Shown here: piece by piece, positions 20,516-42,233 of the stretch | Layout of the letters: the number at the start of each line of letters is the position of its first letter | Numbering within the stretch: position 1 is the stretch's first letter | Source: a virus | Reading direction: 5' to 3' (one strand) | IMG/VR virus record: IMGVR_UViG_3300032213_002833 | Coordinates: 6,528-70,527 of that record | DNA length: 64,000 bases | Translations under genes and position numbers: made by a program | The notes under the pieces: generated by a model | Told to the model about the DNA's origin: nothing | Seen by the model: the letters and a program-made list of their open reading frames with translations, nothing else | Database searches by the model: none

Positions 20516-20584
20516 TTGTCAGGACAGGATTCGAACCTGTTTATAGCACGCTCCGCATATAGGCACCAATTCCGCCACCTGACT
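20516..20584 (-). ncRNA. tRNA-like element 1 (no canonical anticodon arm)
   Basis: AGTCAGG-TGGCGGAATTGGTGCC-TATATGCGGAGCGTGCTATAA-ACAGGTTCGAATCCTGT-CCTGACA: acceptor, D-like and T arms present. Confidence 0.7.
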
Positions 20585-20592
20585 ATATTTTT

Positions 20593-20700
20593 CTAAATCA
20601 CATTTACCATCAATCCATAAATCACAAATCCAATCATCCCACCTATTACCAAAGCACCAATCCCTACTTGCCCTATATTTTCAAACCCTAACTTTTTCAT
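20593..20700 (-). CDS. small membrane peptide (35 aa)
   Basis: MKKLGFENIGQVGIGALVIGGMIGFVIYGLMVNVI read by hand. Confidence 0.5.
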   Translation of the reverse strand: MKKLGFENIGQVGIGALVIGGMIGFVIYGLMVNVI

Positions 20701-20701
20701 A

Positions 20702-20809
20702 TTACAATATAATATTTTTCAATACATTAAATAAAAGTACCCCTGCAATTCCACCTAGTATAATCGCAATTCCCCAAGCTTGTGTTTCAGTTAATCTCAT
20801 TTTCATCAT
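20702..20809 (-). CDS. small membrane peptide (35 aa)
   Basis: MMKMRLTETQAWGIAIILGGIAGVLLFNVLKNIIL; promoter motif at about 20825. Confidence 0.5.
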   Translation of the reverse strand: MMKMRLTETQAWGIAIILGGIAGVLLFNVLKNIIL

Positions 20810-20838
20810 TTTTATTTATACTACAATATACGAATTTC

Positions 20839-21009
20839 TTATTTACTCTCCAATTCCAAACTTAATTTAACAGCTAAACTATTTATCACTTTAATTTTTT
20901 CTAATTTAGCCTTAAAACCTCTTCTACTATCTAATTCTTTATTGGTTTGACTTAATACTAAATCTAAACCGTCAACCAATAAATCTAATTCTTCTAAACT
21001 TAATTTCAT
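20839..21009 (-). CDS. small hypothetical protein (56 aa)
   Basis: MKLSLEELDLLVDGLDLVL...LELESK; own promoter motif. Confidence 0.55.
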   Translation of the reverse strand: MKLSLEELDLLVDGLDLVLSQTNKELDSRRGFKAKLEKIKVINSLAVKLSLELESK

Positions 21010-21064
21010 ATTTACCTTTTTAATTATACTGAAATATACGAATTAAATGTTAAATGAGGTAGTC

Positions 21065-21388
21065 CTAAGCTGCTACCTCATTATTATCAGTTTTATTCAT
21101 TTTAGGTCGTCCTCGTTTAACTAAACCTAACTCTCTTTTCATTTCTAACTCCTTAATCCTTAACTGTCTTACACTATTTTCATTTACAGGTCGTCCTAAT
21201 TTTAACTCCCCATTTATCTTTTTACTCTCTAACTCTTTAATCCTTAACTGTCTTACACTATTACTTTCAACAGGTCGTCCTCGTTTTAACTCTCCATTAC
21301 TTCTTTTTAACTCTAATTCTTTTAATCTTAATTGTCTTACACTGTTCTCATTTACAGGACGTCCTAATACTTTTACTTCATTTTTCAT
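21065..21388 (-). CDS. AT-hook tandem-repeat DNA-binding protein
   Basis: three ~29-aa repeats (GRPVNENSVRQLRIKELE...) plus a final KRGRPK. Confidence 0.75.
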   Translation of the reverse strand: MKNEVKVLGRPVNENSVRQLRLKELELKRSNGELKRGRPVESNSVRQLRIKELESKKINGELKLGRPVNENSVRQLRIKELEMKRELGLVKRGRPKMNKTDNNEVAA

Positions 21389-21474
21389 AACTTTACTTTT
21401 TTTAATTTAACTTATTTTCTTAACTTATTTATACTACAATATACGAATTACTTATTTATTTTACTATTCCTTAA

Positions 21475-21681
21475 CTATTCAACAATAAAATTTAACTCAC
21501 AATCACCTTTAATTTCAATAATTTCATAACTTCCATCTAATTTCATTTCATTAACCAATTCATCAAAATCAAATAATTCAAACATATCACCAAAATTTTC
21601 AACAAATTCCTCTTTAGAGTCATAAACAGTCATACCAAAATTTTCCTCTAAATAACAACAAATAAATTTACTTTTTTTCAT
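21475..21681 (-). CDS. acidic hypothetical protein, C-poor coding strand
   Basis: 68 aa, no Ala/Pro/Gln/His; own promoter. Confidence 0.65.
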   Translation of the reverse strand: MKKSKFICCYLEENFGMTVYDSKEEFVENFGDMFELFDFDELVNEMKLDGSYEIIEIKGDCELNFIVE

Positions 21682-21940
21682 TTTTTTTACCTTTTTAATT
21701 ATAATACAATATACGAATTACTTATTAATTATACTATTCCTTAATTAATTAGGTCTAATAATACAATCTTCAAATCTAAATAAAGGATTATACATTATTT
21801 CACAAGCCATTTCCTGAATTAAAAGTAATCCCATTAACCTTAATTCCATTTGTTCTTTTTTACTCATCTTATCTTATTTTAATTATACTGAAATATACGA
21901 AAGCCCTTTTAATTAAGGGCTTCCATTTATTATTATTTTA

Positions 21941-22357
21941 TTAACACTCCCATTTAATCTTTAATATACAAATTCCTTCATTATATATACTTTCTTCTTT
22001 ATAATCTAAAAAACTACCTTCAAAACCACTTTCTTTCATATATCTATAACTCCTCCAACTATAATCATTTAATTTATTAAATTCAATTTTAAAACCTTCA
22101 AATTCTAAATTTTCTAAATATTCTTTAACTTTATTAAATACTTCATTATATAATTTTACTCCAAAATCATTTCTCTCTCTCATTTCATTACTCACAATAC
22201 CTCCCTTCAATCTTCTAACAACCCCTTCTTTAACACCATATAAATCATTAAAACTATAACCAAATCTAACTCCTAATTCTTTATATAATTTTTCAATTAT
22301 TTCATTTCTTACTATTAAACTTCCTTTAGTTTTTTCAACATCAATTTTACCAAACAT
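21941..22357 (-). CDS. hypothetical protein; coding strand has one cytosine
   Basis: 138 aa; the only + strand G is at 22329; promoter and GTTATG start. Confidence 0.75.
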   Translation of the reverse strand: MFGKIDVEKTKGSLIVRNEIIEKLYKELGVRFGYSFNDLYGVKEGVVRRLKGGIVSNEMRERNDFGVKLYNEVFNKVKEYLENLEFEGFKIEFNKLNDYSWRSYRYMKESGFEGSFLDYKEESIYNEGICILKIKWEC

Positions 22358-22444
22358 AACTTTTACTTTTTTAATTATTTATCTTTTTAATTATAATACA
22401 ATATACAAATTATTTTTTAATATTAATAGTCCTTTATTAAACTA

Positions 22445-22466
22445 AAAAACCCCTATAAAAGGGGTC
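22445..22466 (-). terminator. intrinsic terminator
   Basis: ACCCC-TTTTATA-GGGGT followed by a T run on the minus strand. Confidence 0.6.
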
Positions 22467-22491
22467 CTTTAATTAATATTTTATATATTAT

Positions 22492-22905
22492 TTATTTAAA
22501 CTTCTCTATTAAATCCTTTATTAATTCTTTAATATTCATATCCTCTAAACTACTTAATATAATTTCTTTTTCAATATCTTTATATAAACTAAAACTATTT
22601 CCTTTACCATCTTTTAAACTAATATTAAATAATTTTCCTTTATCATTAAAATTTCTATTATTTTTATTAATATAAAATACTCTTATATCATCTTCATCAA
22701 ATTTATTTTCTATTTTTCTAATTTCTTCTTTTAATAAATCTACTTTCTCTTCTAATTCACTAATTTCTTTTACTTTATTTAAAAATAAATCTTTATTTTC
22801 ACTTTTTTCAAATAATTCTTTACTTTTATTAACTTCAATTAATTTAATATTATTAACTACTTCATTAACAACTACATCTAATTCAATTTTACTTAACTTT
22901 TTCAT
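22492..22905 (-). CDS. hypothetical coiled-coil protein; coding strand has no cytosine
   Basis: 137 aa with no A/P/Q/H/T; no G on the + strand across the ORF. Confidence 0.75.
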   Translation of the reverse strand: MKKLSKIELDVVVNEVVNNIKLIEVNKSKELFEKSENKDLFLNKVKEISELEEKVDLLKEEIRKIENKFDEDDIRVFYINKNNRNFNDKGKLFNISLKDGKGNSFSLYKDIEKEIILSSLEDMNIKELIKDLIEKFK

Positions 22906-22981
22906 AACTTTACTTTTTTTAATTTAACTTTTTTAATTATAATACAATATACAAATTTCTTTTTAAATAACCTATTCCTTT

Positions 22982-23293
22982 TTACCATCTAGGTTCAACC
23001 CAACTACACTCAATATCACTTCCTATTACTTTAAAAGTATATTCTAAAGGTTCATCATTAAATTCTCCCATATACTTTATTTCACCACCTTCATTTTTAA
23101 TAAACTCTCTTACTTCAAAAAAGTTTTTAACATCTTCTTCATCATATAAATCATCATCTCCTTTTTCACATTCTTCAAACAAAAAACTTACTTTACTACC
23201 TACTTTATATTCATTATCATTCCCACAACAAAAATCATAAATCATTTCTTCAAAATAATTAATAACTTTTTCATTTAATTTTTCATTTTTCAT
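22982..23293 (-). CDS. acidic hypothetical protein, C-poor
   Basis: 103 aa; own promoter at about 23320. Confidence 0.7.
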   Translation of the reverse strand: MKNEKLNEKVINYFEEMIYDFCCGNDNEYKVGSKVSFLFEECEKGDDDLYDEEDVKNFFEVREFIKNEGGEIKYMGEFNDEPLEYTFKVIGSDIECSWVEPRW

Positions 23294-23859
23294 CTTTTAT
23301 CTTTTTTTAATTATACTACAATATACGAATTAACTTTAATAATTACTATTCCTGTGTTTAGTTTTTCTAGTATATTTCTTTCTATTCCTATAGATGTTAG
23401 GTCTAGTAGCTTTGATAATTTCTTCCTGAGTGATAATAATTGTTTTCATTTTTCTTACTTGTAATATACGAAAGACATTTTAATAAGCCAAGTCCTGAGC
23501 AGAGAGATGGCCGACAAGTAATTGTCAGCTTCTTTTAAAGTTCATTATGTTAGACAATTGAACGTTGCGTTGTGGTTACTGGAGGTTCTTTCTGTGCCCT
23601 AAGTCTGTTGCGTTCCCTGTTCTATTTCTAGCGTGTTCACTGATACATATGTGAAGGTAATGCCCTTTTACCGCTTTTCCAACCACTTTTTAATTTATTT
23701 TTAATTACTTTTACCCCCCCTCCCCCCATTTTACCGCAAGGGGGACGGGGGGTTCATGTTTTTTGTATATATTTTTGGAAAAAGGTACAAAAGGACGTGG
23801 TTGATGAATGGGAGGGTTAGACCCTGACAATTCTCGTCCCCTATTTAGTGATCTGTATT

Positions 23860-24120
23860 TTCCACATATTATAATTTTCATTTCTTGACAATTGACATTC
23901 CTCATTTGGTAATTGATATTCTTTGACGATTTCTATTCCCATGACGATTTTCATTATTTATTGGTGATTTCCATTGGTAATTTATATTTCCATTTTATAT
24001 TTACAAAACATAAATACAATTCATATTTACATTTTCCCATTATAATTTTCATTTACTTTTGATAATTGACATTTCCCATGTTGATTTTCATTCCACACAT
24101 TGACGATTTTCATTTTGCGT
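23860..24120. repeat. degenerate direct repeats in a non-coding region
   Basis: attataattttcattt...aattgacatt twice (about 23868 and 24039); tgacgattt three times. Confidence 0.55.
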
Positions 24121-24196
24121 TTATCTGTTGATAATTTCCGTTTTGGCTTAAGCTAAACTAATGTTTAGATTAGTTCATGATAATCGTTGTTGATTT

Positions 24197-24310
24197 CTAT
24201 TCTTCGTTGTTTACACGTTCACTTTCATTATTTCTAACATCATACCTTACATACAATATAACCATCACTAAACAAAACACATTCCAAACCATAACTAATT
24301 CTCCTTCCAT
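24197..24310 (-). CDS. small membrane peptide (37 aa)
   Basis: MEGELVMVWNVFCLVMVILYVRYD...EE; AAGGTTATG start. Confidence 0.5.
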   Translation of the reverse strand: MEGELVMVWNVFCLVMVILYVRYDVRNNESERVNNEE

Positions 24311-24315
24311 AACCT

Positions 24316-24408
24316 TTATTTATATTTTCTTCTTTTATTTCTTTTATTTATTTCATTCCCCACCAACCCAATCAACAACACTAAATTAATAATTTCTATT
24401 ATTAACAT
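24316..24408 (-). CDS. small membrane peptide (30 aa), C-free coding strand
   Basis: MLIIEIINLVLLIGLVGNEINKRNKRRKYK; promoter at about 24435. Confidence 0.45.
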   Translation of the reverse strand: MLIIEIINLVLLIGLVGNEINKRNKRRKYK

Positions 24409-24460
24409 TTTTTTCTTTATTTATATTATACTGAAATATACGATCTCTATTTTATATCTG

Positions 24461-24652
24461 TTAGTCCTCTAATGTTTCTTCTACTGTAATTACTTCACTT
24501 CCCCAATCATATTGTTCATCAAATGTTATTCCTTCACTTCGATGTTCTCCGGTTTGTAATTTTTCAAGTGCTTCCTCTAGTGAATCCGCTTCAATAAGAT
24601 ATTCTATTGTTGCTTTTACTTGTACCTCTGTTTCAAATCTGAATTGTCCCAT
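24461..24652 (-). CDS. hypothetical protein
   Basis: 63 aa 'IEADSLEEALEK'; own promoter. Confidence 0.65.
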   Translation of the reverse strand: MGQFRFETEVQVKATIEYLIEADSLEEALEKLQTGEHRSEGITFDEQYDWGSEVITVEETLED

Positions 24653-24699
24653 GTTTTTCTTTATTTATACCTTAATATACGAAATCTCTTTAAATAATC

Positions 24700-24936
24700 T
24701 TAGTCCTTTAACCAAACATTTTCATAAAATTCTCTTAACATTTTACCATGTTCTGTTTTAACATAGTTTCTTCTTAAATCAAATAAATGTTGTAAACATC
24801 TATTATATGTCCAAAACTTCTCTACTGATTTATTTGTTTTACTATTGTAGAATCCCGCTTCACTTTCACCCCATTCTTCAACTAAACATTTAACTATTTC
24901 TAATTTTGATTCAAATATATCTTTTAATTCTTTCAT
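24700..24936 (-). CDS. hypothetical protein
   Basis: 78 aa; own promoter. Confidence 0.65.
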   Translation of the reverse strand: MKELKDIFESKLEIVKCLVEEWGESEAGFYNSKTNKSVEKFWTYNRCLQHLFDLRRNYVKTEHGKMLREFYENVWLKD

Positions 24937-24992
24937 TTTCTTAATTTATACTACAATATACGAAATTTATTTTAATAAGCTTAGTCCTTAAT

Positions 24993-25223
24993 TTAAAAAT
25001 CCTTATGTTTAGATACTTGTATTAGAGTAATAAGTTCTTTTTCACTTTCTTTTACCTCAAATCCACCATTGTTGTGTGTTGTTACTCCTATTCTGGAGTG
25101 TTTTGGTTTATCTACTGATCCGTAGCTTCTTGTTTCTTCTACTTCATAAAAATGTCCTATCATATCTACATTTATATAAATAGGAGTATTTCCTTTTAAT
25201 GGTGTTACCTTAATCAATCTCAT
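24993..25223 (-). CDS. hypothetical protein, weakly FlbD-like
   Basis: 'MRLIKVT...IYINVDMI...FEVKES'. Confidence 0.6.
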   Translation of the reverse strand: MRLIKVTPLKGNTPIYINVDMIGHFYEVEETRSYGSVDKPKHSRIGVTTHNNGGFEVKESEKELITLIQVSKHKDF

Positions 25224-25682
25224 AACCTTTATTTTCTTAATTTATACTTTAATATACGAAATCTTTTTTATATTTTTTATTCCCCTAAAATTTCATCTAA
25301 TTGATCAGTAATATATTCCTTTACATCACTATATTCAAACCCATCCTCTAACATTTGATCTGTTATGTCATTAATTGCTTCTTTTAAATTTACAAATGAA
25401 ACAAAGCTCAACATGTTTTCAATTCGTTCTCTTTTTTCAAAATCCATAATCTTTATTTATTTAATTTTAACTTCAATTTCAAATCATTAATAGTCATTTC
25501 TACAAAACCTGCAGTCATAATAGGTGTTTTCCCATTCTGCTCTGCTTTTTCAATCTCAGCAACCATGTTTGCTTGTACTTTATCTAATCCATCACTGATT
25601 AAAAACTTCTCAAAACCATTTAATTTACTCATAACCTTTATTTTTTTTCTCTTTATTTATACTGTAATATACGAAAGCAGCT

Positions 25683-25925
25683 TTAATTAGCTGCTTCCTC
25701 TTTTACTTTTTCTATAATCATCCTTATCGCTTCTTGATTTTCGGGTAATGAATTATCTGGTTTAATTTTCAATTCTGTCATTAAATCGTTTATTTTTGCC
25801 CATTCCCCTCTTGATTTTGAAGTAATGGTATGTTCTTTTCCGAACAATTTTTCATCTACTTTTACTTGTAAAAATGCTTCTGCTTCTTTTTGTTGAATTA
25901 CTTCAATCATTTGTTTTTTTGTCAT
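25683..25925 (-). CDS. hypothetical protein
   Basis: 80 aa; own promoter. Confidence 0.65.
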   Translation of the reverse strand: MTKKQMIEVIQQKEAEAFLQVKVDEKLFGKEHTITSKSRGEWAKINDLMTELKIKPDNSLPENQEAIRMIIEKVKEEAAN

Positions 25926-25975
25926 AACTTTCTTTTTTATTTATACTGTAATATACGAAATCTTTTTTATATCTT

Positions 25976-26362
25976 CTATTCCTCTATTGAATCAGTATCA
26001 TCTGCAGGATAAAATTCACTACTTACAACAACATCATCTTCCTCTTCCTCTTCAACAAATTCACTCAAAATATCTGTGATGTGATCCATTACCCCATGAA
26101 CATCAATTTGAATATCATCAATTGAAATTGTGTTCCCATAATCAATACTAAACGTAACATCATCTTTATCAACCAACTCATCACTATTACGATCCAAACA
26201 ACGCTCAATTTTACCTGAAATTTCATCTGCTAATTCCTGAGTAATGCCTGTTTGTTTCTCGGGTGTGATTTGTTCAATCAATAAAATTATTTTATCAATA
26301 TCAACTGTTGATGATAATGCTTTTACTGTTGTTAGCTGTGCTACTAATTCTTCTTTTTTCAT
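25976..26362 (-). CDS. acidic hypothetical protein
   Basis: 128 aa; own promoter. Confidence 0.7.
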   Translation of the reverse strand: MKKEELVAQLTTVKALSSTVDIDKIILLIEQITPEKQTGITQELADEISGKIERCLDRNSDELVDKDDVTFSIDYGNTISIDDIQIDVHGVMDHITDILSEFVEEEEEDDVVVSSEFYPADDTDSIEE

Positions 26363-26415
26363 AACTTTTTTTTAATTTATTTTCTTTATTTATACTGTAA
26401 TATACGAAAGGGAGC

Positions 26416-26799
26416 TTACGCTCCCTCTTCCTCTAATACATTTTGTAAATAATTAACCATTGGAGATTCAACTCTACCTACTAACCAAATACCATGTCTA
26501 GTTAAACAATAAACATACTCTATTCCACTACCAAAACCATCTTCAAACAATTCCTCTACATCGTTAAATGATTGAAATTTTAAATCTTCACCTCTATCTC
26601 TATGATATGCTACTGTATCTATAGTTGATTCTCCTAGTGAACTGATATCACCTAGTTCTAGTAATTTCTCTAATTTTTCTTGATCGTAGTGTTCAAATAA
26701 CTTTTTACCTACTGAATCTACATACCCATCAAAATGACAATAAATTGAATCTACTGTTTCGTCTTGATTTTCAATTGCTATTCTACTTCTTGTTGCCAT
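26416..26799 (-). CDS. conserved phage protein (YCHxDGY type)
   Basis: 'MATRSRI...SIYCHFDGY...GDISSL...EYVY'. Confidence 0.75.
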   Translation of the reverse strand: MATRSRIAIENQDETVDSIYCHFDGYVDSVGKKLFEHYDQEKLEKLLELGDISSLGESTIDTVAYHRDRGEDLKFQSFNDVEELFEDGFGSGIEYVYCLTRHGIWLVGRVESPMVNYLQNVLEEEGA

Positions 26800-26860
26800 A
26801 ATTTTTCTCTTTATTTATACTATAATATACGAAATTTCTTTAATATCTTCTATTCCTCTG

Positions 26861-27439
26861 TTAATCTTCTCTTGTTATACTTTCTAAACCAAACAATTCA
26901 GTTAATACTGTTTCTTCCATTTCTTCATAACATGTAAGCTCCATTGATGCTAATATCTCAGCTACAGTTGATGAATTTTGTACCTTTTCAATAGCTTTCA
27001 TACAATGGTTAGTGTTAGTTTTGATTGTTTTAATAATATCTTCAATTGTATCAACTTTTTCCTCTCGATCTTCATTGATTACTATTCTGATATCTTGTAA
27101 CATGTCAAATTCAAAGTTTTCAATATGATTTTCTAACATATCAATTACTCGTTGCTTACCTTCTTTAAAATTAAACTTCATAACTTTTTCTTTTTTTATT
27201 TCTTCAAATATACGATCTTCTTTTTGCTGAGAAACTTCCTCTACTTTTGTAAATTGATATTCAAAATAACCACCATCTGCTTGTTCACCTGATAATTCAT
27301 CTCTAATCCATTTTACAAAAACATATTCCTCATCATTCCATCCAATGTAATACTCTTCAACTATAGCTGTTGCTCCTTTTTTAGCTGCGTATGTACCTTC
27401 TCCTTCAAATTCTACTATGTCTCCTTTTTTAAATTTCAT
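26861..27439 (-). CDS. hypothetical protein, probably two fused modules (second begins MKFNFKEG)
   Basis: 192 aa; SH3-like 'KFKKGDIVEF' N-terminus; internal promoter-like aatatacg at about 27206. Confidence 0.6.
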   Translation of the reverse strand: MKFKKGDIVEFEGEGTYAAKKGATAIVEEYYIGWNDEEYVFVKWIRDELSGEQADGGYFEYQFTKVEEVSQQKEDRIFEEIKKEKVMKFNFKEGKQRVIDMLENHIENFEFDMLQDIRIVINEDREEKVDTIEDIIKTIKTNTNHCMKAIEKVQNSSTVAEILASMELTCYEEMEETVLTELFGLESITRED

Positions 27440-27479
27440 AACCTTTATTTCTTTTATACTGTAATATACGAAAGCCCTT

Positions 27480-28244: not shown

Positions 28245-28297
28245 AACTTTTATTTTCTTAATTTATACTTTAATATACGAAATTTCTTTTAAATTAA

Positions 28298-28537: not shown

Positions 28538-28641
28538 TTTCTAAGACTTTTTATAACTGCAACAACTATATTACCACAAACGGATAATAAAATTACTGTT
28601 CCCATAAATGTCCAAAATGAACTAAATATTGTTTCTATCAT

Positions 28642-28845: not shown

Positions 28846-28850
28846 TTTAT

Positions 28851-29302: not shown

Positions 29303-29339
29303 TAAAAAACCTACCGTGTGTTTGTAGCCACACGGTAGG
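29303..29339 (-). terminator. intrinsic terminator downstream of tRNA-like element 2
   Basis: CCTACCGTGTG-GCTACAAA-CACACGGTAGG-TTTTTT. Confidence 0.8.
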
Positions 29340-29365
29340 AAAAGAAACGGTTATGAAGCGTTTTG

Positions 29366-29448
29366 TAGTCAGGGCAGGACTCGAACCTGCACTACACCTG
29401 GTATACACCATATTAAACTAGGAGCGTGTTTCATTACACCACCTGACT
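29366..29448 (-). ncRNA. tRNA-like element 2
   Basis: AGTCAGG/CCTGACT-A acceptor, GTGT/ACAC D stem, GCAGG-TTCGAGT-CCTGC T arm; non-canonical centre. Confidence 0.7.
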
Positions 29449-29603: not shown

Positions 29604-30407
29604 TTAGGCAGCTATAAATTCAGCTGCCATTGCAAATAGTTTTTGGTTAATTTCTAGGTCTTGTTTGAAATTCTTCACTTTACGTGCTTTTCTAATTCTA
29701 GTACCTGACATGTATTGGAAATCACCTTCCAATATTTTCTCTTGAATCACATTGAACACTGACCATAAATCACTACCTTTATCTTCAGGTCGTGTTGGTT
29801 CAAGTAACAAATCTAAATCAATTTTAACTGAATCAATTTGTTCTTCTGTGAAGCGAGTTGACAATGCTTTTTTAGCTAATTCTTTTGCTTGCTCTTCACT
29901 CAATTTGATTGCTTTCATTTTATTCATTGATTCAACTGTCAAAGGCAATTGTTCAACCATTTCACGGATTTGTGATTGCAACTCTTCAAATGTATAGCCC
30001 ATATGGCGAATTCGAACATTTTCAAATTCTTGAGTGGAAATAACTAAACCGTTTTCACACACAATTCGGAAAATTCCGGCTGTAAATGTAAATGCATTCT
30101 TTCCATCATTGCTATTGGTAACAAGAATTTGGGGAAAAACATCATCTCCATCCGCTCCATTGATTACAATGTCTGGGTTACGGAATACAACTAGGTGTTT
30201 TTGGAAACCTTGCCCTTTACGTGCTTTAACTTGTTTAGCATCTACCACTTTGAATCCCAATTTTTCCATATCCTCAATTACTTTAAATGTTGGGATGTGT
30301 GTAAACTTGCTTGATACACTTGGACTTGTTGTTTCAGTGAAAATTGAATTTGCTCTTTCTTTAATCTCACTTGTTTTTAAAAAACCATCTTTGCTTAAAT
30401 CTAACAT
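29604..30407 (-). CDS. DUF932/DUF945-family protein
   Basis: 'SSKFTHIPT', 'FQKHLVVFR', 'NSNDGKNAF...GIFRIVCENGLV', 'LWSVFNVIQE'. Confidence 0.8.
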   Translation of the reverse strand: MLDLSKDGFLKTSEIKERANSIFTETTSPSVSSKFTHIPTFKVIEDMEKLGFKVVDAKQVKARKGQGFQKHLVVFRNPDIVINGADGDDVFPQILVTNSNDGKNAFTFTAGIFRIVCENGLVISTQEFENVRIRHMGYTFEELQSQIREMVEQLPLTVESMNKMKAIKLSEEQAKELAKKALSTRFTEEQIDSVKIDLDLLLEPTRPEDKGSDLWSVFNVIQEKILEGDFQYMSGTRIRKARKVKNFKQDLEINQKLFAMAAEFIAA

Positions 30408-30825: not shown

Positions 30826-30830
30826 AACCT

Positions 30831-31365: not shown

Positions 31366-32121
31366 TTAAATTGCTATTGCATATTGATTTACTAAGCTGA
31401 ATAATTGTTTATTTAATCTAATATCTTCATTCATGTTATTAACATCATGTGTTAAGTTTTCTTGGATTCTGTTGAATACCGTCCATAAATCGTTACTTTC
31501 ATCTTCAACTCTATTAACTGTAAGTAAATCATCAATGTTAATATCTTCTAAATCATTATATCTTAAACGAGCTGCTTCAGTAGCTAACTTACGCATATCT
31601 TCAATTGATAATCCTTTATGTTTCATTTCATTAACTTCAGTTAATAATTTATCAGTTTTATTAGTTACTGAGGCAATGAAGTGATCTAGATTCATATAGT
31701 TAACTTCAATATGTTTGATATTCTCTGATTCAGCGTGTTGATCAAATCTTACTAAACCATTTGTACATACCTGTCTAAACATACCTAAACTCATTTGTAA
31801 TGGTTTTGCTCCGTTACAACTATTTGAAATAGTAATTGATGTATATGCTTCATCTTTACCTTTACTATTTTTAATAGCAAAATCAGGATGATGCATCTGA
31901 ACGTAATTATTTAATATTTTACGATTTCTACCTCGTTGTTCATCAACTCCTTTTAGTTGCCATCCTTCATGTTGTAGTTTTGTAATTACATCTAATGTTG
32001 GAATATAAAATTCCTTTGTTTTAATTTTTTGAACGTTTCTGATGTTGTTTACATCTAACGAATTAGCAAACGCAATTGCTTTGTTGATATCATTATCAAC
32101 GGGGATAAATTTGTACTTCAT
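31366..32121 (-). CDS. DUF932/DUF945-family protein (second paralog)
   Basis: 'NSCNG...GMFRQVCTNGLV', 'DLWTVFNRIQENL'. Confidence 0.8.
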   Translation of the reverse strand: MKYKFIPVDNDINKAIAFANSLDVNNIRNVQKIKTKEFYIPTLDVITKLQHEGWQLKGVDEQRGRNRKILNNYVQMHHPDFAIKNSKGKDEAYTSITISNSCNGAKPLQMSLGMFRQVCTNGLVRFDQHAESENIKHIEVNYMNLDHFIASVTNKTDKLLTEVNEMKHKGLSIEDMRKLATEAARLRYNDLEDINIDDLLTVNRVEDESNDLWTVFNRIQENLTHDVNNMNEDIRLNKQLFSLVNQYAIAI

Positions 32122-34528: not shown

Positions 34529-34529
34529 T

Positions 34530-35123: not shown

Positions 35124-35166
35124 TTTTATTATAATATACAAAACATTTTTTAAATAACCTAGTCCC

Positions 35167-35643: not shown

Positions 35644-35966
35644 ATTTTAAATAATTCGTAATTACTATTTTCTGTTTTGAACTTGATATAGTCTTCTCTT
35701 TGCTCTACAATTTCAGTTACAACTGTTGTTTGCCAAGTGAAGAATGGGCTGAATGGAGACATTAACAATGATCTACCTATTGCTGGTTCTGTATGTTTTT
35801 CTTTGAAAAATCCATCATCTCCAAATTCCAACCACATTATATCTTCTGATTGTTTTGTTAATCCATCTCTTTCTCTAACCAATTTCCAATTGGGAGTTGG
35901 TTGTGTAAGTTCCTCTGCTAACTCTTCTAAGTTAATTGGTAGTTTAATTTGATTTAATTTGCTCAT
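35640..35966 (-). CDS. hypothetical protein
   Basis: 'WQTTVVTEI...FKTENSNYEL'. Confidence 0.65.
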   Translation of the reverse strand: MSKLNQIKLPINLEELAEELTQPTPNWKLVRERDGLTKQSEDIMWLEFGDDGFFKEKHTEPAIGRSLLMSPFSPFFTWQTTVVTEIVEQREDYIKFKTENSNYELFKI

Positions 35967-36240
35967 TTTGTTTTGTTTTTAGTCCCCACATCAATCCAAC
36001 CCATTCCATTTCTTTTTCAGCACGTGCAGCGTATAGATCTAATTTTTTCATTAAATATTTTTTGCCCCATTTTTTCCATTCATCACGTTGTTCTTCAGTC
36101 ATTTCATATTGATTAAACCAATTTTCTTGATTTTGAATATCATCAAACGTGACGTTATGTCCGGCAATGCGAAACATTTCATTAATCAAATCAACTACTG
36201 CTTGTTCTCGTTTTTCTTCTCTTGTTAATCTCTTTGCCAT
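35944..36240 (-). CDS. hypothetical protein
   Basis: 98-aa ORF. Confidence 0.65.
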   Translation of the reverse strand: MAKRLTREEKREQAVVDLINEMFRIAGHNVTFDDIQNQENWFNQYEMTEEQRDEWKKWGKKYLMKKLDLYAARAEKEMEWVGLMWGLKTKQNEQIKSN

Positions 36241-36241
36241 T

Positions 36242-36466
36242 TTATTCTAAAGTTAAACCACTATCATTTTTCAATTCATGTAGATGTTTTCTAATTCTCT
36301 CTAGAGCATCATATACATCTCCAGTTATTTTGTCATTGTACTTTAATTCAGATCGTAAATGTTGATCTAAATCCCACACTAACATTTTCCATTTAGCTCC
36401 ATTGATTGCTGATTCCATTTCTTCTCTATCTTCAAACGGATCAAATTCTATTGTTACTTTTGCCAT
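36242..36466 (-). CDS. hypothetical protein
   Basis: 74 aa; own promoter. Confidence 0.65.
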   Translation of the reverse strand: MAKVTIEFDPFEDREEMESAINGAKWKMLVWDLDQHLRSELKYNDKITGDVYDALERIRKHLHELKNDSGLTLE

Positions 36467-36577
36467 AACTTATTTTCTTTAATTTATACTTTAATATACG
36501 AAATTTCTATTATAAAAACTAGTCCCTTTGTTTTGAATTCCAAAAAGCTAACCCAATAATTATCCAAATTGTTATTA

Positions 36578-37294
36578 TTATAGCCATATTATTTCATTTG
36601 TTATATTATCCCATTCAAATGATAATGGTAAGTTTGTATATGCATATCGCTCATTTAAAACAGATGCGTTTATAAAATGGGTATGTCCGTTAAAATAATA
36701 ACCTGCACTACCATGAATATGACCAAACACGTGAATTTTTGGTTTAATTTGATCTACTCGATAACGTAACATTTCACAACCAACTCGCAAACTTGAACCA
36801 CCTGGTATATCTAAATGTCCGTAAGGTGGACCATGTGTGATCAATATGTCTGTATTGTCAGGTATAGCATCCCAACGTGCTTTCATTTCATCCCCATTTC
36901 GAGGTAAATTGAACGCCCAATTGTAGAATTCAGGTTGCCACGGTGAACCGTAAATGCGAATATTATCTTCTGGTATGTCTCCATTTGGTCCATCAAAGTA
37001 ATCAACCAATTCTTCATCCTGCAAGTATTCTATTGTTTCAAACTCGTCTAGAATCATTTTTTTCCATTCAGGGTCATTTTCAAATAAACGATCGTGGTTT
37101 CCAGCAATGAATGTTTTGTTTTTGTAGTTGTCTATTTTATCAAACCATTCTAGAAATTGAGTTGCCTCTGTTTGGTGATAACCTGTATTCATAAAGTCAC
37201 CAGCATGAATCAATATGTCTCCACCTGGTAGATCTTTATTTAATAGATGGTGTTTACCGTGAGTATCTGATATGAATGTGATGGTTAATTTCAT
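36578..37294 (-). CDS. calcineurin-like metallophosphoesterase (MPPED/239FB-like)
   Basis: 'SDTH', 'HAGD', 'AGNHD', 'THGPP', 'FGHIH'. Confidence 0.9.
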   Translation of the reverse strand: MKLTITFISDTHGKHHLLNKDLPGGDILIHAGDFMNTGYHQTEATQFLEWFDKIDNYKNKTFIAGNHDRLFENDPEWKKMILDEFETIEYLQDEELVDYFDGPNGDIPEDNIRIYGSPWQPEFYNWAFNLPRNGDEMKARWDAIPDNTDILITHGPPYGHLDIPGGSSLRVGCEMLRYRVDQIKPKIHVFGHIHGSAGYYFNGHTHFINASVLNERYAYTNLPLSFEWDNITNEIIWL

Positions 37295-37431
37295 CCAAAT
37301 ACAATTGCAATTAATAATGTGATTGTAAACCAAGCAGATACTACTAGAATAGGTAATAGATTTTTTTTAAGTGTTTCCATAACTTTTATTTTTTTAATTT
37401 TAATATACGAAAAGAAAATCTAAAATCCAAA

Positions 37432-39504
37432 TTATCTTATAATTTTCTTTGAAGTACCATCTTCGTACACCTCAAACACAACCCCTTTAACTTCAGGGCC
37501 TACTTCTTGCCCCATTAGATTAACATATTTAACCACTTTTTTTACTTTAATAGTATTATCTAAAGCAATTGGACCATATACTTTAAATTGTCCATCTATA
37601 TCATGTTGAACTAATCTATAGTAATTTAAACCAAAATAATCAATATTATCCAAATAATAATAATTGATATTTTCAGTTGAATTACCTGCTGATGGTTTAT
37701 TTGCTATTTCTCTCCAAGTTTCACCATTAATTGATTTCTCAACTATAAAATGAGATGAATTTTGTTCAGATGCTGTAGCCCATTTTAAATTATTGAATGT
37801 TGGGTATTCTATTCCTTCAAAATATAGAAGTTCTACTGGTAATGCTTGTGGGGAAGTTATTGATATTTTAAAGGTTCCTGTTGTTCCACCTCCATATTCC
37901 CAAACACGAATGTATATTGTTTCATATTGATTAAAATCTGATCTAGTAATATAAGACATTGCACCATTTGGGCTATCATCATCATCACATTCAATTTCTA
38001 TTAATGCACCAATTGTTCCCCTATATATTGCCATACCAGCATCTGTTATATTCCCAGTTTGTGTATCAAAATCTAAAGCATATATGTGTTGAGGTACTAT
38101 AATTTTAAACCAAACATCTTCACCAATGTATGAAGCACATGATGGTGTGGATTCTGTTGTTGTATTTGAAGAATATAAATTTGTATATGTTACATAATTA
38201 ATACCATTAGTTATAGTTAATTCAATGGCTTCACTAGGATTATCATTTGTAGGAGGGGAGGGTGGAGCAGTACAAGTTCTACTTATAGTAAATGTACCTG
38301 TAGTAGTATTACCTGTTGAATAATGGGCAATCCAAACGTAATATTGTTGTAAATTTGTTGTAGTAAATGTATAACTTTCAACGGAATTTGATAGAGCATC
38401 ATCTTTAGAAGCGATAATTGAAAACGAACCACAAGATATCCCAGATAAAATGACCATTTCATGATCAAACACTGCTGTTGAGGATATTGTTGTTTGCTGT
38501 CCATCCCCAGTAAATTTATACCATACACCAAAGCTAGAAGTTACTGAACTTGCTGGTGGTGTTTCGGATACAGAATTTAATGTTGTACCAGCTAAATTAG
38601 ATGTTGCACAAGGTAAAGATGTTGCTCCTGAGCAGAGATCATTTGAGGGGGGAGTTAATGTTGTAAAAGACCAAGTAGAACATCCAGTTGCTAAACCAAC
38701 TGAGTTTTGAGGAACAATTTTCCAATAATAAGTTGTTCCAGTAGAAAGAGTTGGAGTATATGAAGTACCAGCTTGGTTTGTTGATACTAAGGGAGGTGTT
38801 GGTGAATTACCAAAATATACATCATATCCAGTTGCTCCACTAGCAGCTGCCCAAGATAAAATTTGATTTGTTGCTATATTTGTTGCACTATTTGTAGGGG
38901 ATGTTGGGGACGCTATACATGAAGGAGCAGTTGTAGATGGAGTATATGTTACTGTAATGTTGTCAAGTAAAGCGGGTGGGGAAACTCCACCACTAGCATC
39001 ATTTCTCCACGTAAATATTATTCTACGGGTTGTTCCTGCAATTGTGTTTGGTAAATTATATGTTGTTGTAGCACATACTGTTTGTCCTTGTAAAGTTCCT
39101 AAAAGTACACGACTCGCATTTGAAGTAATTAATGTTCCTGCTGTTGGGGAAAATGAATTTATACAAGACCAAGTTTGTAAATAATCAAAACTAGCTTCTC
39201 CATTTAATTTTCTATTAAAAGAAAGTTGAATATTTGTAGCACCTGAGGGGATAACTACATCTAAATAGGCATGAACAGTAGATGCTGATGTAATAGTATA
39301 TGCGTAAGATGAATTATTGTTACTAATATATAAAGCAGAAAGTCCATTACATTGATTAGATGAACCTCTAAACCATTTATTCGTTTGGGTTCCATTAGTT
39401 AGAGTTAATGAATTAGCAGATTCAAATGTTTCACTAAATGCTGTGGTTTGAGCATCTAGAAATAAATTTACTGAAAGGGAAATAAATAAAATTAAGTTTT
39501 TCAT
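37432..39504 (-). CDS. secreted multidomain protein resembling Bacteroidota T9SS cargo (FN3 / beta-sandwich domains)
   Basis: signal-peptide-like MKNLILFISL...AQ; FN3 'LSW...GYDVYFG...TYYWKIVP'; 'PSNDLC', 'DVWF', 'LPVELLYF', 'YYRLVQHDIDG'; CTD-like 'YVNLMGQEV...KKII'. Confidence 0.7.
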   Translation of the reverse strand: MKNLILFISLSVNLFLDAQTTAFSETFESANSLTLTNGTQTNKWFRGSSNQCNGLSALYISNNNSSYAYTITSASTVHAYLDVVIPSGATNIQLSFNRKLNGEASFDYLQTWSCINSFSPTAGTLITSNASRVLLGTLQGQTVCATTTYNLPNTIAGTTRRIIFTWRNDASGGVSPPALLDNITVTYTPSTTAPSCIASPTSPTNSATNIATNQILSWAAASGATGYDVYFGNSPTPPLVSTNQAGTSYTPTLSTGTTYYWKIVPQNSVGLATGCSTWSFTTLTPPSNDLCSGATSLPCATSNLAGTTLNSVSETPPASSVTSSFGVWYKFTGDGQQTTISSTAVFDHEMVILSGISCGSFSIIASKDDALSNSVESYTFTTTNLQQYYVWIAHYSTGNTTTGTFTISRTCTAPPSPPTNDNPSEAIELTITNGINYVTYTNLYSSNTTTESTPSCASYIGEDVWFKIIVPQHIYALDFDTQTGNITDAGMAIYRGTIGALIEIECDDDDSPNGAMSYITRSDFNQYETIYIRVWEYGGGTTGTFKISITSPQALPVELLYFEGIEYPTFNNLKWATASEQNSSHFIVEKSINGETWREIANKPSAGNSTENINYYYLDNIDYFGLNYYRLVQHDIDGQFKVYGPIALDNTIKVKKVVKYVNLMGQEVGPEVKGVVFEVYEDGTSKKIIR

Positions 39505-39639
39505 ATTAAAAAAATTAATACTCACTTGAAGAACCTTTATAAGAAACCCCCATCTACCATGGGCCGGTCGAGTTTTGTTTATAAATATTTTAAATTAAAA
39601 TAAAACGTAGGAGGTTTGACGGTTATTTACTATTTATCG

Positions 39640-40032
39640 TTATCCTTTGAGTATTTGTTTGGATCCTTCCCAAGATCCTTTTAACACGACTTTATCTATT
39701 CGAGAGTCAATGTAGCTTTTTGCTTCACCAATGGCACGATGAAGTTCTTCTTCGTGTTTGTGGTGTTCTCTATCGATGTGGTCGATTTGATTTAATATGG
39801 TTTTTTCAACCATTGATACATCGCGGCCTGTAATTTCAAATTGTTTCCAAACTTCGCGATTTTTGTCTTCGATTTCTCGTCTTAAATCACCTTCAATGGC
39901 AGCACATAGCTGTTGAAGTGATTCTGTTTTTCTAGTTAATTGATTAATCTTAGCCAAACCTACAACAATAGAAGCAGATATTCCTGCTGCCACAATCGTA
40001 AGCATACCTAAAACAAATGATGTTATTTCCAT
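39640..40032 (-). CDS. membrane-anchored coiled-coil protein
   Basis: N-terminal TM helix, coiled coil, 'SYIDSRIDK'. Confidence 0.65.
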   Translation of the reverse strand: MEITSFVLGMLTIVAAGISASIVVGLAKINQLTRKTESLQQLCAAIEGDLRREIEDKNREVWKQFEITGRDVSMVEKTILNQIDHIDREHHKHEEELHRAIGEAKSYIDSRIDKVVLKGSWEGSKQILKG

Positions 40033-40108
40033 GTTTTCTAATTTTTATATGTCAAAGAACTCCTACGTTTGCCCTTAATATAATATTCCTTTTTTAAATA
40101 ACCAAGGA

Positions 40109-40137
40109 AAAATAAACCCTACTGTAAAGTAGGGTTG
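40109..40137 (-). terminator. terminator hairpin after tRNA-Ala
   Basis: AACCCTAC-TTTACA-GTAGGGTT-TATTTTT. Confidence 0.65.
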
Positions 40138-40140
40138 AAG

Positions 40141-40214
40141 TGGAGGATAACGGATTCGAACCGTTGACCCTTTGCGTGCAAGGCAAATGCTCTAGCCAAC
40201 TGAGCTAATCCCCC
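40141..40214 (-). tRNA. tRNA-Ala(TGC)
   Basis: GGGGGATTAGCTCAG...CTTGCAC...GGTTCGAATCC...ATCCTCCA; G3:U70 pair. Confidence 0.95.
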
Positions 40215-40591
40215 AACAATTTATAAAATAGAGTAAATGTTAAACCAAATATAATTCTAGTCACTATTACCCATAAAATAACCAACCATATACTATTACA
40301 TGGAATAGCTATAAACAACACCCCAGCAAATATAAATAAATTTCTCAAAAGCTTAAATAAATGCCAAGCATCTGTTAAACCTACAAATATTGTTGTTGAT
40401 CCTGGGAATTTGGCTCCTTCTGTTGGATCTCCATTTTTATATTTGTTTCTCCAAGACAGGGTTGGGTCCCAAAATCTTTTATTTCTAAAACAATAAAATA
40501 TAGAATATGAATAGTGGAACTGTAAAGTATCCATTATTGCTTCAAATAAACCAGCAAAAGCAAAAAACAATATGCCTATTAAGGGAATCAA
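40205..40591 (-). CDS. membrane protein
   Basis: 'SWRNKYKNGDP', 'LTDAWHLFK', several TM helices; 3' end overlaps tRNA-Ala by about 10 nt. Confidence 0.7.
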   Translation of the reverse strand: MIPLIGILFFAFAGLFEAIMDTLQFHYSYSIFYCFRNKRFWDPTLSWRNKYKNGDPTEGAKFPGSTTIFVGLTDAWHLFKLLRNLFIFAGVLFIAIPCNSIWLVILWVIVTRIIFGLTFTLFYKLLGD

Positions 40592-40770
40592 TGTTTTTTT
40601 CTATTTTGAATGTAGTAAACTAAATTTGCTACAAAACCTCCATACACTGCAATAAAAGTGGAGATTTTTAAGTACCAACTATCAAGATATCCATTTGCTA
40701 ACCAAAATGGCCATAAAATACACATTACACCTAAAAATACAATTGCTAATATGCTAGTTATGTTATTCAT
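40588..40770 (-). CDS. small membrane protein
   Basis: start moved to MNNITSIL after the ATATTTATA motif; two TM helices. Confidence 0.55.
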   Translation of the reverse strand: MNNITSILAIVFLGVMCILWPFWLANGYLDSWYLKISTFIAVYGGFVANLVYYIQNRKKH

Positions 40771-40786
40771 GTTTATAAATATTAAG

Positions 40787-40873
40787 CGGAAGTGGTAGGA
40801 TTCGAACCTACGGAACCCTTTCGAGTTCACTAGTTTTCAAGACTAGCCTTTTAAGCCGCTCAAGCACACTTCC
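40787..40873 (-). tRNA. tRNA-Ser(TGA)
   Basis: CTAGT-CTTGAAA-ACTAG anticodon arm, long variable arm, GGTTCGAATCC. Confidence 0.93.
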
Positions 40874-40890
40874 ATTTATAAATATGTTAG

Positions 40891-40974
40891 TACTCGGAGT
40901 GGGACTTGAACCCACACGACCAACTGGCCAACAGATTTTAAGTCTGTCTTGTCTACCATTTCCAACATCCGAGC
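40891..40974 (-). tRNA. tRNA-Leu(TAA)
   Basis: ACAGA-CTTAAAA-TCTGT anticodon arm, variable arm, GGTTCAAGTCC. Confidence 0.93.
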
Positions 40975-40979
40975 ATTTG

Positions 40980-41053
40980 CGGTGCGTATGGGATTCGAAC
41001 CCATGACCCCTTGCGTGACAGGCAAGTATTCTAACCAACTGAACTAACGCACC
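40980..41053 (-). tRNA. tRNA-Asp(GTC)
   Basis: CTTGC-CTGTCAC-GCAAG; complete cloverleaf. Confidence 0.95.
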
Positions 41054-41057
41054 TTTG

Positions 41058-41130
41058 AGCCGATGGAGGGATTCGAACCCCCGACCTACTGATTACAAAT
41101 CAGTTGCTCTACCAGCTGAGCTACATCGGC
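41058..41130 (-). tRNA. tRNA-Thr(TGT)
   Basis: ACTGA-TTTGTAA-TCAGT; complete cloverleaf. Confidence 0.95.
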
Positions 41131-41510
41131 AAAAAACCCCTAGTAGTATTCCAAGCGTCCTTGGCACTTGCTAGGGGGTGATACTTGGTTATAGGGTTGT
41201 CTATGAAGGCACCGTCGCGCACCCATAAAGCAGATCCCATTTCCCAATATCGAGAAAGACCATCTGAGTGAGCAGATCTAACGGTATGCCCGATGGTACT
41301 TGGCCTACGTCTATCTCAACGCAGGGGGGAGTGTTACATTGATTTGGGTTCAATGTAAAAAACCTTTGTAGACTCCAAACCATAAGGTAAAGAGCAACTC
41401 TAGAACCGGAGAACTAGAGGATCCCAATGTTTCCATTGGTGGGGTAAAAGACCTACCCTGGTACGCTCGATCGGGGGCACCCCAGTCCAGAAGCGTGGTA
41501 GGTACTGTCA
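41131..41510 (-). ncRNA. unassigned large structured RNA (about 380 nt)
   Basis: GC-rich island with at least 7 clear hairpins, upstream ATATTTATA motif and a 3' hairpin plus T6. Confidence 0.6.
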
Positions 41511-41512
41511 AA

Positions 41513-41866
41513 CTATAAATATTGTTTAAGTAATTCTCCTTTATAGTGTTTTTCATATGTTCCTCGAGGATCATCATAATATATTGCCATATACTTTGCC
41601 AATTTATCAAATGATTCAAATACAAATGTTTGACAACCAACACTAACAATAAACCCATTATGTACGTGTTTAATGGTTACATCATACTGGGCTAATTTAT
41701 CATTCATGTCTACAACAGGCATTGGTCTGCAATCTTCTTCTCTCTCATATGCTTCAAGTGCTGGTGTTTCATCTTGAGCAGATTCCTCCAGGTTGATAAT
41801 GTCTGCAATTGCGTCTTGAAATGCTCTTCCTAGATCTGCTACTTGTTCTTGTTGTCTTCTGTTCAT
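41513..41866 (-). CDS. hypothetical protein (start moved to MNRRQQEQ)
   Basis: 'VTIKHVHNGFIVSVGCQTFVFES'; the longer ORF call overlaps a tRNA-like element. Confidence 0.65.
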   Translation of the reverse strand: MNRRQQEQVADLGRAFQDAIADIINLEESAQDETPALEAYEREEDCRPMPVVDMNDKLAQYDVTIKHVHNGFIVSVGCQTFVFESFDKLAKYMAIYYDDPRGTYEKHYKGELLKQYL

Positions 41867-41945
41867 ATAACTTATTTTATTTAAAAAAGGACTTGTAAAA
41901 CCCATCTCCATTGAGGTAAGGAAACTCCATCCAATGTTTTTTGCG

Positions 41946-42069
41946 TAGTCAGGACAGGATTCGAACCTGTAATGGTTGTTAGTGGCTTTGTTGACGGGCG
42001 GTACAGCTTCCACACTGCATCTCCCAATACCAATTCTAACTCAGCGTCTACCAATTACGCCACCTGACT
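41946..42069 (-). ncRNA. tRNA-like element 3 with an extended (~70 nt) anticodon-position hairpin
   Basis: AGTCAGG-TGGCGTAATTGGTAGACGC...ACAGGTTCGAATCCTGT-CCTGACT-A. Confidence 0.72.
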
Positions 42070-42168
42070 ATAAAAACACACTCTTTAGCCTTCTACTCCC
42101 AGCCCCGAGAAATTGTATATAGCTTAGCCCGCCTCACCGCTGTGTGGGAACTGAAGTTTATGTGTTTG

Positions 42169-42233
42169 TAACCAGGAAGGGACTCGAACCCTTTGCAGCA
42201 TTAGGACGTTTCCCCGTACGCCAAACCCTGGTT
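42169..42233 (-). ncRNA. tRNA-like element 4 (acceptor and T arm, no D stem)
   Basis: AACCAGG...AAGGG-TTCGAGT-CCCTT-CCTGGTT-A. Confidence 0.6.

Follow-up and report, generated by a model that had tools for sequence, protein, structure and literature searches.

The 64,000-nt stretch of DNA described here (the window) comprises bases 6528-70527 of a 70.5-kb IMG/VR virus record, IMGVR_UViG_3300032213_002833, the completeness of which is put at ~44%. Its minus strand carries four elements that resemble tRNA genes, none of which forms a 7-nt U33 loop on a 5-bp stem. A reading made earlier from the letters alone (the sequence-only reading) had located all four, and we find them at the same positions and on the same strand. 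The first, el1 (20516..20584), is 69 nt long and has a short insert; el2 (29366..29448), of 83 nt, has a conserved core, CCUAGUUUAAUAUGGUGUAUACCAGG; el3 (41946..42069), of 124 nt, contains a 73-nt irregular hairpin; and el4 (42169..42233), of 65 nt, is a D-armless tRNA-like RNA. Here, we describe the phage RNA family to which el1, el2 and el3 belong. As judged by sequence comparison, this family is large and uncatalogued, its frame is constant, and its inserts are exchangeable and selected.

At the 5' end, el1, el2 and el3 all read UAGUCAGGUGGYG, and their common 3' half is CAGGUUCGARUCCUGYCCUGAC. Their constant parts are an acceptor stem (AGUCAGG/CCUGACU), A73, a Leu-type D arm and a T arm, and their middles are unrelated. 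A shared scaffold with unrelated middles and without a 7-nt U33 loop is what had been claimed for them, and the claim holds: the 3' half CAGGTTCGARTCCTGYCCTGAC and the 5' end TAGTCAGGTGGYG each occur three times in the window and in none of 100 shuffles. The acceptor stem with A73 is exact in el2 and el3; el1 has A72 for U72, so that the intact acceptor stem ascribed to all three elements is present in el2 and el3 and is broken in el1 by an A1/A72 mismatch. Three relatives of el1 on other contigs pair A1-U72. The insert of el1 is a hairpin with the loop GGAGCGU, which has no U33. In el3, the 73-nt hairpin stands in place of the anticodon and variable regions, and its predicted fold is the long irregular hairpin that had been proposed. 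Predicted folds include the acceptor stem and T arm in el2, el3 and el4, and the D arm in el2 and el3; the minimum-energy fold of el1 retains the acceptor stem only.

General tRNA models recognize these elements in part. With the Rfam tRNA model (RF00005; gathering score, 29 bits), el2 (44.1 bits) and el3 (37.1 bits) pass, el1 (24.2 bits) falls below, and el4 gives no match at E<=1; at the anticodon-arm site, the Rfam alignments have insertions of 20 nt and 64 nt, or the arm is missing. Undetermined calls had been expected from a tRNA caller, and ARAGORN indeed reports el2 as 'tRNA-???' with a 2-nt anticodon and nothing for el1, el3 and el4. The covariance model R1, built from 75 family members, scores el1 at 52.1, el2 at 66.4 and el3 at 63.5 bits; these three are in its seed alignment and their scores are partly by construction, and members outside the seed score alike.

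The R1 score of el4 is 29.4 bits, which is in the range of ordinary tRNAs, and el4 is therefore not a family member. It has the acceptor stem AACCAGG/CCUGGUU, G8 and the T arm AAGGG/CCCUU. By these features, el4 is a different, D-armless tRNA-like RNA outside the AGUCAGG frame family. The earlier description of el4 as a fourth element is thus right about its acceptor and T arm without a D arm, but not about its belonging to the same frame (29.4 vs 52-66 bits). Two other contigs, L229 and L230, have conserved copies of el4 with 1-3 changes.

Extent of the frame family

Over the whole 70.5-kb virus record, R1 finds three family copies only, el1-el3. The sequence-only reading had treated the family as local, with these three members; the count is correct for the record, but the frame spans well over a hundred phage contigs. 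The 3'-half pattern matched at least 120 viral contigs, and 153 of the 171 matches in the listed loci and the window have the 5' acceptor word within 220 nt. All family counts given here (150 elements, 128 clusters, 174 or 185 members, and loci) stem from the matches listed and are lower bounds. Among these matches there are 150 distinct elements, ranging from 69 to 191 nt with a median of 104.5 nt. Their 5' half, which was absent from the query, is nearly constant, with the form UGGCGGAAU(U)GGUAGACGC, and their inserts form 128 sequence clusters, 110 of which are singletons.

A covariance model of the scaffold had been suggested as a check. In R1, the scaffold stems covary and members are split from ordinary tRNAs: members score ~48-76 bits and ordinary tRNAs <=47 bits, with tRNA-Leu the top-scoring ordinary type at 42-47 bits. 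When the pattern was searched in one genome per species across 185,579 bacterial and archaeal species, 30 stretches were found, all on contigs of metagenome-assembled genomes (MAGs); 23 of the 30 are clear family members. Seventeen of the 30 MAG records are labelled Bacteroidota, which is a pointer to the host and not proof. By these scans, the family is restricted to phages, with one frame in well over a hundred contigs.

We found no published description of the AGUCAGG-frame family in the literature. In an IMG/VR survey of candidate structured RNAs, the available portion of which describes no such frame, five candidates are tRNA or tRNA-like, and overlap is possible (PMC10690425); a 2026 preprint on bacterial tRNA mimics, in its available portion, treats other RNAs. 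Among GenBank phages, the matches returned by blastn with el3 are confined to the T arm of ordinary tRNAs and are 21-31 nt long. By ARAGORN, 33 of 174 members receive a full-length amino-acid type, with many amino acids and anticodons, and such elements are probably entered as ordinary tRNAs when phages are annotated automatically. Since these types arise by chance, phage tRNA counts and the codon-usage arguments built on them would be inflated.

Several tRNA-like genes outside the family came up in the same searches. In Tenacibaculum phage pT24, a cultured flavobacterial phage (L124, LC168164 192032-192477), a tRNA-Undet and a tRNA-Pro have abnormal anticodon arms, with a 5-nt loop and 7-bp stems; their R1 scores of 32-36 bits make them non-members. 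A second tRNA-like family, distinct from the AGUCAGG frame, is found in L018, L049, L066 and L112; its elements are 156-176 nt long, with G73, a long conserved insert and acceptors that covary (UGUCAGG, UGUAAGG, UGACAGG, UGUAGAG). Lastly, L093:5724-6218 (+) is a phage transfer-messenger RNA (tmRNA) gene (Rfam, 68.5 bits), on a contig that also has several family members and a large tRNA array.

Selection on the frame and exchange of inserts

The scaffold changes in ways that preserve its pairing. In the T stem, pair 49-65 is A49-U65 in el1 and el3 and G49-C65 in el2, the change that had previously been noticed as kept paired, and the counts over 150 distinct elements behave as a pair (A-U 120, G-U 23, G-C 5, U-U 2, A-C 0). 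Across the R1 alignment of 128 distinct sequences, both-sided changes occur in 12 of 16 scaffold pairs, and 95.7% of cells are paired; 0 of 500 shuffles equal this pairing, and slid controls are 30-41% paired. The D stem is the most variable scaffold stem, its pairs changing on both sides in 8-24 of the 128 sequences.

An independent case is that of the el2 type, for which a scan with the el2 core found 20 loci and 16 distinct sequences. Aligned and folded with MAFFT and RNAalifold, the 16 sequences have compensatory changes in all seven acceptor pairs and in four of the five T pairs. The 26-nt core, CCUA(A/G)UUUAAUAUGGUGNAUACCAGG, is invariant across at least five acceptor/T frames, with four acceptor words beyond AGUCAGG and its close variants: GAAGUGG, AGCUCUA, AGCAAGG and GGCCUUA. 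Three other contigs (L196, L197 and L198) carry the el1 insert unchanged, with different flanks. Other insert types show swaps of whole stems with the loops kept, e.g., L016 versus L059, and inserts in general fold better than shuffled versions of themselves (mean z -0.79, n=165, p=6e-18). On this comparative evidence, the elements are under selection and are not decaying. The earlier proposal of a fixed frame in which a variable payload replaces the anticodon arm, kept by selection and not left by decay, is borne out by the covariation, the invariant el2 core and the identical el1 inserts.

Inserts differ at loci that are otherwise alike. Element el2 sits 155 nt behind a DUF932 gene (29604..30407, minus strand; Pfam PF06067, E 6e-32) that lies directly upstream of it. 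Using the protein, we found 26 relatives of this gene with 59-88% identity, and 24 of them have a family member downstream, at a distance of ~170 nt or less in 22. By reading of the sequences, this one locus holds at least 12 unrelated inserts, and one type occurs there in both a short and a long version. The el2 type also occurs behind a different gene, in L127 and L131. A second DUF932 paralog lies at 31366-32121 on the minus strand, 1 kb from the first.

The el3 locus has the same character. The window, L229 and L230 share both the upstream block (spacer Y plus el4, described below) and the 3' flank, and between these the same frame holds three different inserts. The divergence between L229 and L230 begins right after AGUCAGGU and stops at the T stem. 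We infer that recombination within the constant arms would be the simplest route of exchange.

Proposed maturation, possible charging and competing explanations

The flanks of 174 family members were compared with those of 164 ARAGORN-typed ordinary tRNAs from the same loci. U is found at -1 in 148/174 members and 121/164 ordinary tRNAs, C at 74 in 171/174 and 164/164, and an encoded CCA in 5/174 and 11/164, respectively. Bacterial RNase P is known to contact U-1 and C74, and a missing CCA implies 3' trimming and CCA addition. Because the flanks are those of real tRNA genes, we propose processing by RNase P and completion of the CCA end, and tRNA-like maturation is the most likely fate of el1-el3 and of the family. 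A processing handle of this kind had been suggested for the elements; the flanks (U-1, C74, CCA rarely encoded) support it indirectly.

The frame also has the features of a tRNA-Leu. A73 is present in 160, U48 in 147 and a Leu-like D region in 112 of 174 members, and the D region of the frame is that of the ARAGORN-called tRNA-Leu genes in the same loci. According to a review, E. coli leucyl-tRNA synthetase (LeuRS) needs A73, A15-U48, G18G19 and A20a, but neither the anticodon nor the long arm; a minimal tRNA-Leu without anticodon and long arm continues to be charged as long as neither A73 nor the D/T contacts are destroyed (PMC9976931). These sequence features are present in el3, and in el2 the D stem is 4 bp long and the D loop shorter; the rules are those of E. 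coli, and those of the host may differ. Since the frame keeps the E. coli-type LeuRS identity set, and no part of that set is in the anticodon arm, leucylation is possible. The frame RNAs may thus be chargeable with leucine, and the same features could also be mere ancestry.

We favour, with moderate confidence, the explanation that el1-el3 are non-decoding scaffold RNAs, derived from tRNA-Leu, that carry a variable domain, are processed like tRNAs and can perhaps be leucylated. The constant frame consists of U8, a D arm with A14, A15, G18 and G19, U48, the T loop UUCGAAU and A73, and an insert of ~20-130 nt, differing from member to member, replaces the anticodon arm and variable region. The elements would be co-transcribed with neighbouring genes, and RNase P would cut at U-1/A+1, after which the 3' end would be trimmed and completed by a CCA-adding enzyme. 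The product would take up an L-shaped fold, its elbow and acceptor end giving stability and access to tRNA-binding proteins, with the insert as the working domain. Leucine would possibly be attached, and inserts would be swapped by recombination in the constant arms. In a bolder form, which we think rather unlikely, the frame would be a natural 'tRNA scaffold': a ribosome-blind carrier that expresses, stabilises and perhaps leucylates hundreds of RNA domains traded as cassettes. The cargo of such a scaffold may include protein- or ligand-binding aptamers and RNA counter-defence decoys.

Several observations weigh against the scaffold explanation. The frame is so constant that covariation in the acceptor and T stems depends on a minority of variants, and the R1 alignment was fitted to the model and is hence biased toward structure. 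The el2 core works on other frames, so the AGUCAGG frame is not essential to the el2 payload. Singletons make up 110 of the 128 insert clusters. The el3 insert has no relatives in two viral scans and one metagenome scan, although exact-pattern scans of this kind miss diverged relatives, and a second metagenome scan gave a single chance match within a coding region; el3 is therefore an orphan for which selection on the insert cannot be shown. Among 131 non-redundant inserts, no 5- to 7-mer is enriched beyond carry-over from the D arm, nor is there Shine-Dalgarno or anti-Shine-Dalgarno enrichment. The inserts match no Rfam family in the window or in 12 array loci (85 kb), where Rfam finds only tRNA and one phage tmRNA. 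Antisense complements of the el1-el4 inserts in the minus-strand transcripts of the window are 9-11 nt long, within the range of 300 shuffles. With no motif, Rfam match or antisense target, a function of the payload is deduced from conservation only.

The evidence for expression that comes from RNA libraries is weak. In contigs from these libraries, the frame is found around other inserts (X18, depth 10-29; X20, depth 10.7), for which contaminating DNA is a possible source, and the el3 insert is covered by no RNA-library contig; both points count against the scaffold explanation too. Two RNA libraries match the halves of the el3 frame with other letters between them, i.e., other members, and for one of the two the figures coincide with those of a run that is flagged as probable DNA. 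Between el3 and el4, the spacer (42080-42161, minus strand) is matched by short RNA-library contigs with 3-5 differences, at a depth of 91.5 in one run and 17.6 in another; its conservation in L229 and L230 is poor, and its fold does not stand out (z -0.72). The folds of spacers X and Y and of the spacer upstream of el2 are likewise unremarkable, with z from about -0.7 to 0.

tRNAs punctuate mitochondrial transcripts, and the elements could similarly be no more than cis-acting RNase P and 3'-processing sites that cut or stabilise polycistronic mRNAs, with the inserts as tolerated filler; we consider this unlikely. It fits the tRNA-like flanks, the preponderance of singleton inserts, and the position of el1 and el2 at operon ends just before terminator-like hairpins. 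Downstream of el2 by 27 nt is an intrinsic-terminator-like hairpin of 11 bp, seven of them G-C, followed by a U run (29310..29339, minus strand). On the el1 side there is a weak hairpin with U4 at 20445-20458, which the terminator scan did not call. In the family as a whole, a terminator-like site lies within 90 nt downstream of 30/185 members, compared with 5/185 random positions, and the nearest open reading frame (ORF) is co-oriented for 142 of 169 members and opposite for 27. A promoter scan found fewer sigma-70-like sites than in shuffles. Members also cluster, 65 of 185 lying <500 nt from another member and 31 of 185 <500 nt from an ordinary tRNA, and in L014 a 3.8-kb stretch has ~11 members and five tRNAs and no long ORF. 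Arrays of this type contain no long ORF that could be punctuated. Filler would also be expected to become shorter, but the elements have a median length of 104.5 nt, and filler should not be invariant on at least five frames as the el2 core is, or identical in four contigs with different flanks as the el1 insert is. The compensatory changes in insert stems and the excess of structure over shuffled inserts also speak against filler.

Small hairpins with the loop CUUCAUAA lie on the 3' side of two elements. Both were read from the sequence on the minus strand: one is at 29347..29361, between el2 and its terminator, and the other, ACCG-CUUCAUAA-CGGU, is at 20490..20505, 3' of el1. A hairpin with this loop is also found 3' of the el2-type copies in L160 and L181. 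The loop resembles a CAU (Met/Ile2) anticodon loop, and the motif occurs within 60 nt downstream of 4/150 family members only.

Alternatively, the elements might work as DNA, the halves being homology arms or the site of a recombinase or homing enzyme and the RNA shape ancestral baggage. PeSL cassettes of T4-type phages, in which an early promoter and a stem-loop flank small ORFs, have been proposed to move via similar arms. The two syntenic loci with different inserts between identical arms and sharp boundaries are what such modules would leave, as are the el1-type and el2-type units in different contexts across phages, and the frame is nearly invariant in nucleotides across many contigs. The nucleotides that are kept, however, coincide exactly with the ones involved in tRNA tertiary structure and processing (U8, A14, G18G19, U48, UUCGAAU, A73, U-1 and C74), D-stem pairs change on both sides in 8-24/128 sequences, the el2 type covaries fully in its acceptor and T stems, and no recombinase is consistently adjacent in the window (40 of 93 ORFs scanned). 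We regard a role purely in DNA as quite improbable; recombination in the arms fits the scaffold explanation, and is therefore no competitor to it.

Equally improbable, in our estimate, are decoys or sponges, in which the upper body of the RNA would titrate a host factor that binds tRNA bodies (for example LeuRS, a tRNA-cleaving defence nuclease, or an enzyme of modification or processing), and would not be productively used or cut because it has no anticodon loop. The restriction to phages, the several copies per genome (~11 within 5 kb in L014), the fast turnover at conserved loci that is typical of arms-race genes, and the LeuRS identity set kept in the frame could all be read in this way. 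To our knowledge, however, the known anticodon nucleases all need the anticodon loop that these elements lack; conserved, structured, type-specific inserts are unexplained by a pure decoy, and no defence or counter-defence gene was found by Pfam next to the elements among 40 window ORFs. The sequence-only reading had offered a decoy for anticodon nucleases as one role, and we do not retain it, given the absent anticodon loop, the heterogeneous inserts and the lack of any link found to defence genes.

Decayed pseudogenes, or tRNAs from which introns are removed to give ordinary tRNAs, are very improbable and were rejected despite the clear descent of the frame from tRNA-Leu: insert conservation and stem covariation speak against decay; group I introns need more than 20-130 nt, and no group I intron or other Rfam intron family was found in the window or the 12 array loci; and ARAGORN in intron mode types 95/174 members (73 with an 'intron') and 86/174 with shuffled inserts (75 with an 'intron'), which is chance level, calling in the window el2 only, as a spurious Tyr(AUA). 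Splicing of the inserts to leave ordinary tRNAs, which had been named beforehand as the outcome that would overturn the idea, is thus not what is seen.

Related systems and the surrounding phage genome

Phages are known to make other tRNA-like RNAs. T5 RNA1, RNA2 and RNA3 (NC_005859 30501-30644, 32959-33083 and 33877-33949) are annotated as 'tRNA-like stable RNA with unknown functions'. Like the family described here, they are phage genes among tRNA genes, with an acceptor-like stem and T arm at the ends and a large insert, and RNA1 has the Leu-type D region UGCCGGAAUUGGUAGACGG, as in the frame. Unlike the frame, they are single genes of one phage group, with no frame common to many phages and no exchangeable inserts; with filters off, R1 has no match to RNA1 at E<=1, and its match to RNA2 is partial, at 30 bits, in the range of ordinary tRNAs. 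T4 has rnaC (species 1; NC_000866 70908-71046) and rnaD (species 2; 71053-71171), described in the available parts of two papers as small stable RNAs from the phage tRNA region with an unexplained role (PMC3014915, PMC9697503). T4 rnaC ends in a T-arm-like hairpin, CCGGG-UUCGAAU-CCCGG, and R1 matches it partially at 20.7 bits; rnaD gives no match. In neither is a Leu-type D arm evident, and they share no frame.

In the engineered 'tRNA scaffold', a foreign structured RNA reportedly takes the place of the anticodon arm, and the cell is said to process and stabilise the product like a tRNA. The elements have the same architecture; they are natural and phage-borne and have one Leu-derived frame. 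The engineered version is described as a means of recombinant RNA expression in E. coli (PMC3401473, PMC3753655). With class II tRNA-Leu, the elements share the D arm, A73, U8, U48, the T loop and the flanks, but they are without the 5-bp anticodon stem, the 7-nt U33 loop and a Leu anticodon, and their acceptor begins with A1-U72. Their topology is also tmRNA-like, in that a tRNA-like acceptor/T domain is built from the two ends and another domain takes up the interior. They differ from tmRNA in having U3-A70 instead of the alanine identity pair G3-U70, and inserts down to ~20 nt, with no room for a tag frame, and neither ARAGORN nor Rfam calls a tmRNA in the window.

Phage genomes are annotated almost wholly by their proteins, and among the matches listed one frame recurs with >100 unrelated inserts. 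If processed and stable, these RNAs would be a large unexplored class of phage non-coding RNAs, and the engineered tRNA scaffold would have a precedent in nature. The frame offers a direct handle for detecting and testing them, and comparisons within the family may help to show what the T4 and T5 'stable RNAs' do.

The window has a G+C content of ~30%, and its minus strand holds nearly all of its long ORFs. A Pfam scan covered 40 of the 93 window ORFs of at least 80 aa, and the recognisable matches fit a large lytic phage: they include a clamp-loader-like AAA ATPase and a PD-(D/E)XK nuclease, GIY-YIG and NUMOD homing-endonuclease-like proteins, GroEL, glycosyltransferases, methyltransferases and the two DUF932 paralogs. 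No CCA-adding enzyme, RNA ligase, aminoacyl-tRNA synthetase or leucyl/phenylalanyl-tRNA transferase was found by Pfam in these 40 ORFs, an absence that says little because the record is only ~44% complete. Near-identical DNA is present in freshwater, lake and river metagenomes from several studies.

Genuine tRNA genes for Ala, Ser, Leu-UAA, Asp and Thr (40140..41130, minus strand; ARAGORN, Rfam) are transcribed in the same direction as el1-el3; among them, the tRNA-Leu(UAA) at 40890-40974 is ordinary by ARAGORN. A tRNA-Glu lies at 42398-42470 (ARAGORN, Rfam). Next to it, the block shared at the el3 locus, ~230 nt on the minus strand made up of the structured spacer Y (42234-42398) and el4, is conserved in three contigs, with copies at L229:12471-12704 (-) and L230:212-441 (+). 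The block has no Rfam match, and an RNA-library contig spans 42215-42388. RNAalifold on the three sequences gives three compensatory pairs and proposes an alternative fold for el4. In all three contigs, the block has a tRNA or tRNA-like gene on one side and an AGUCAGG-family element on the other.

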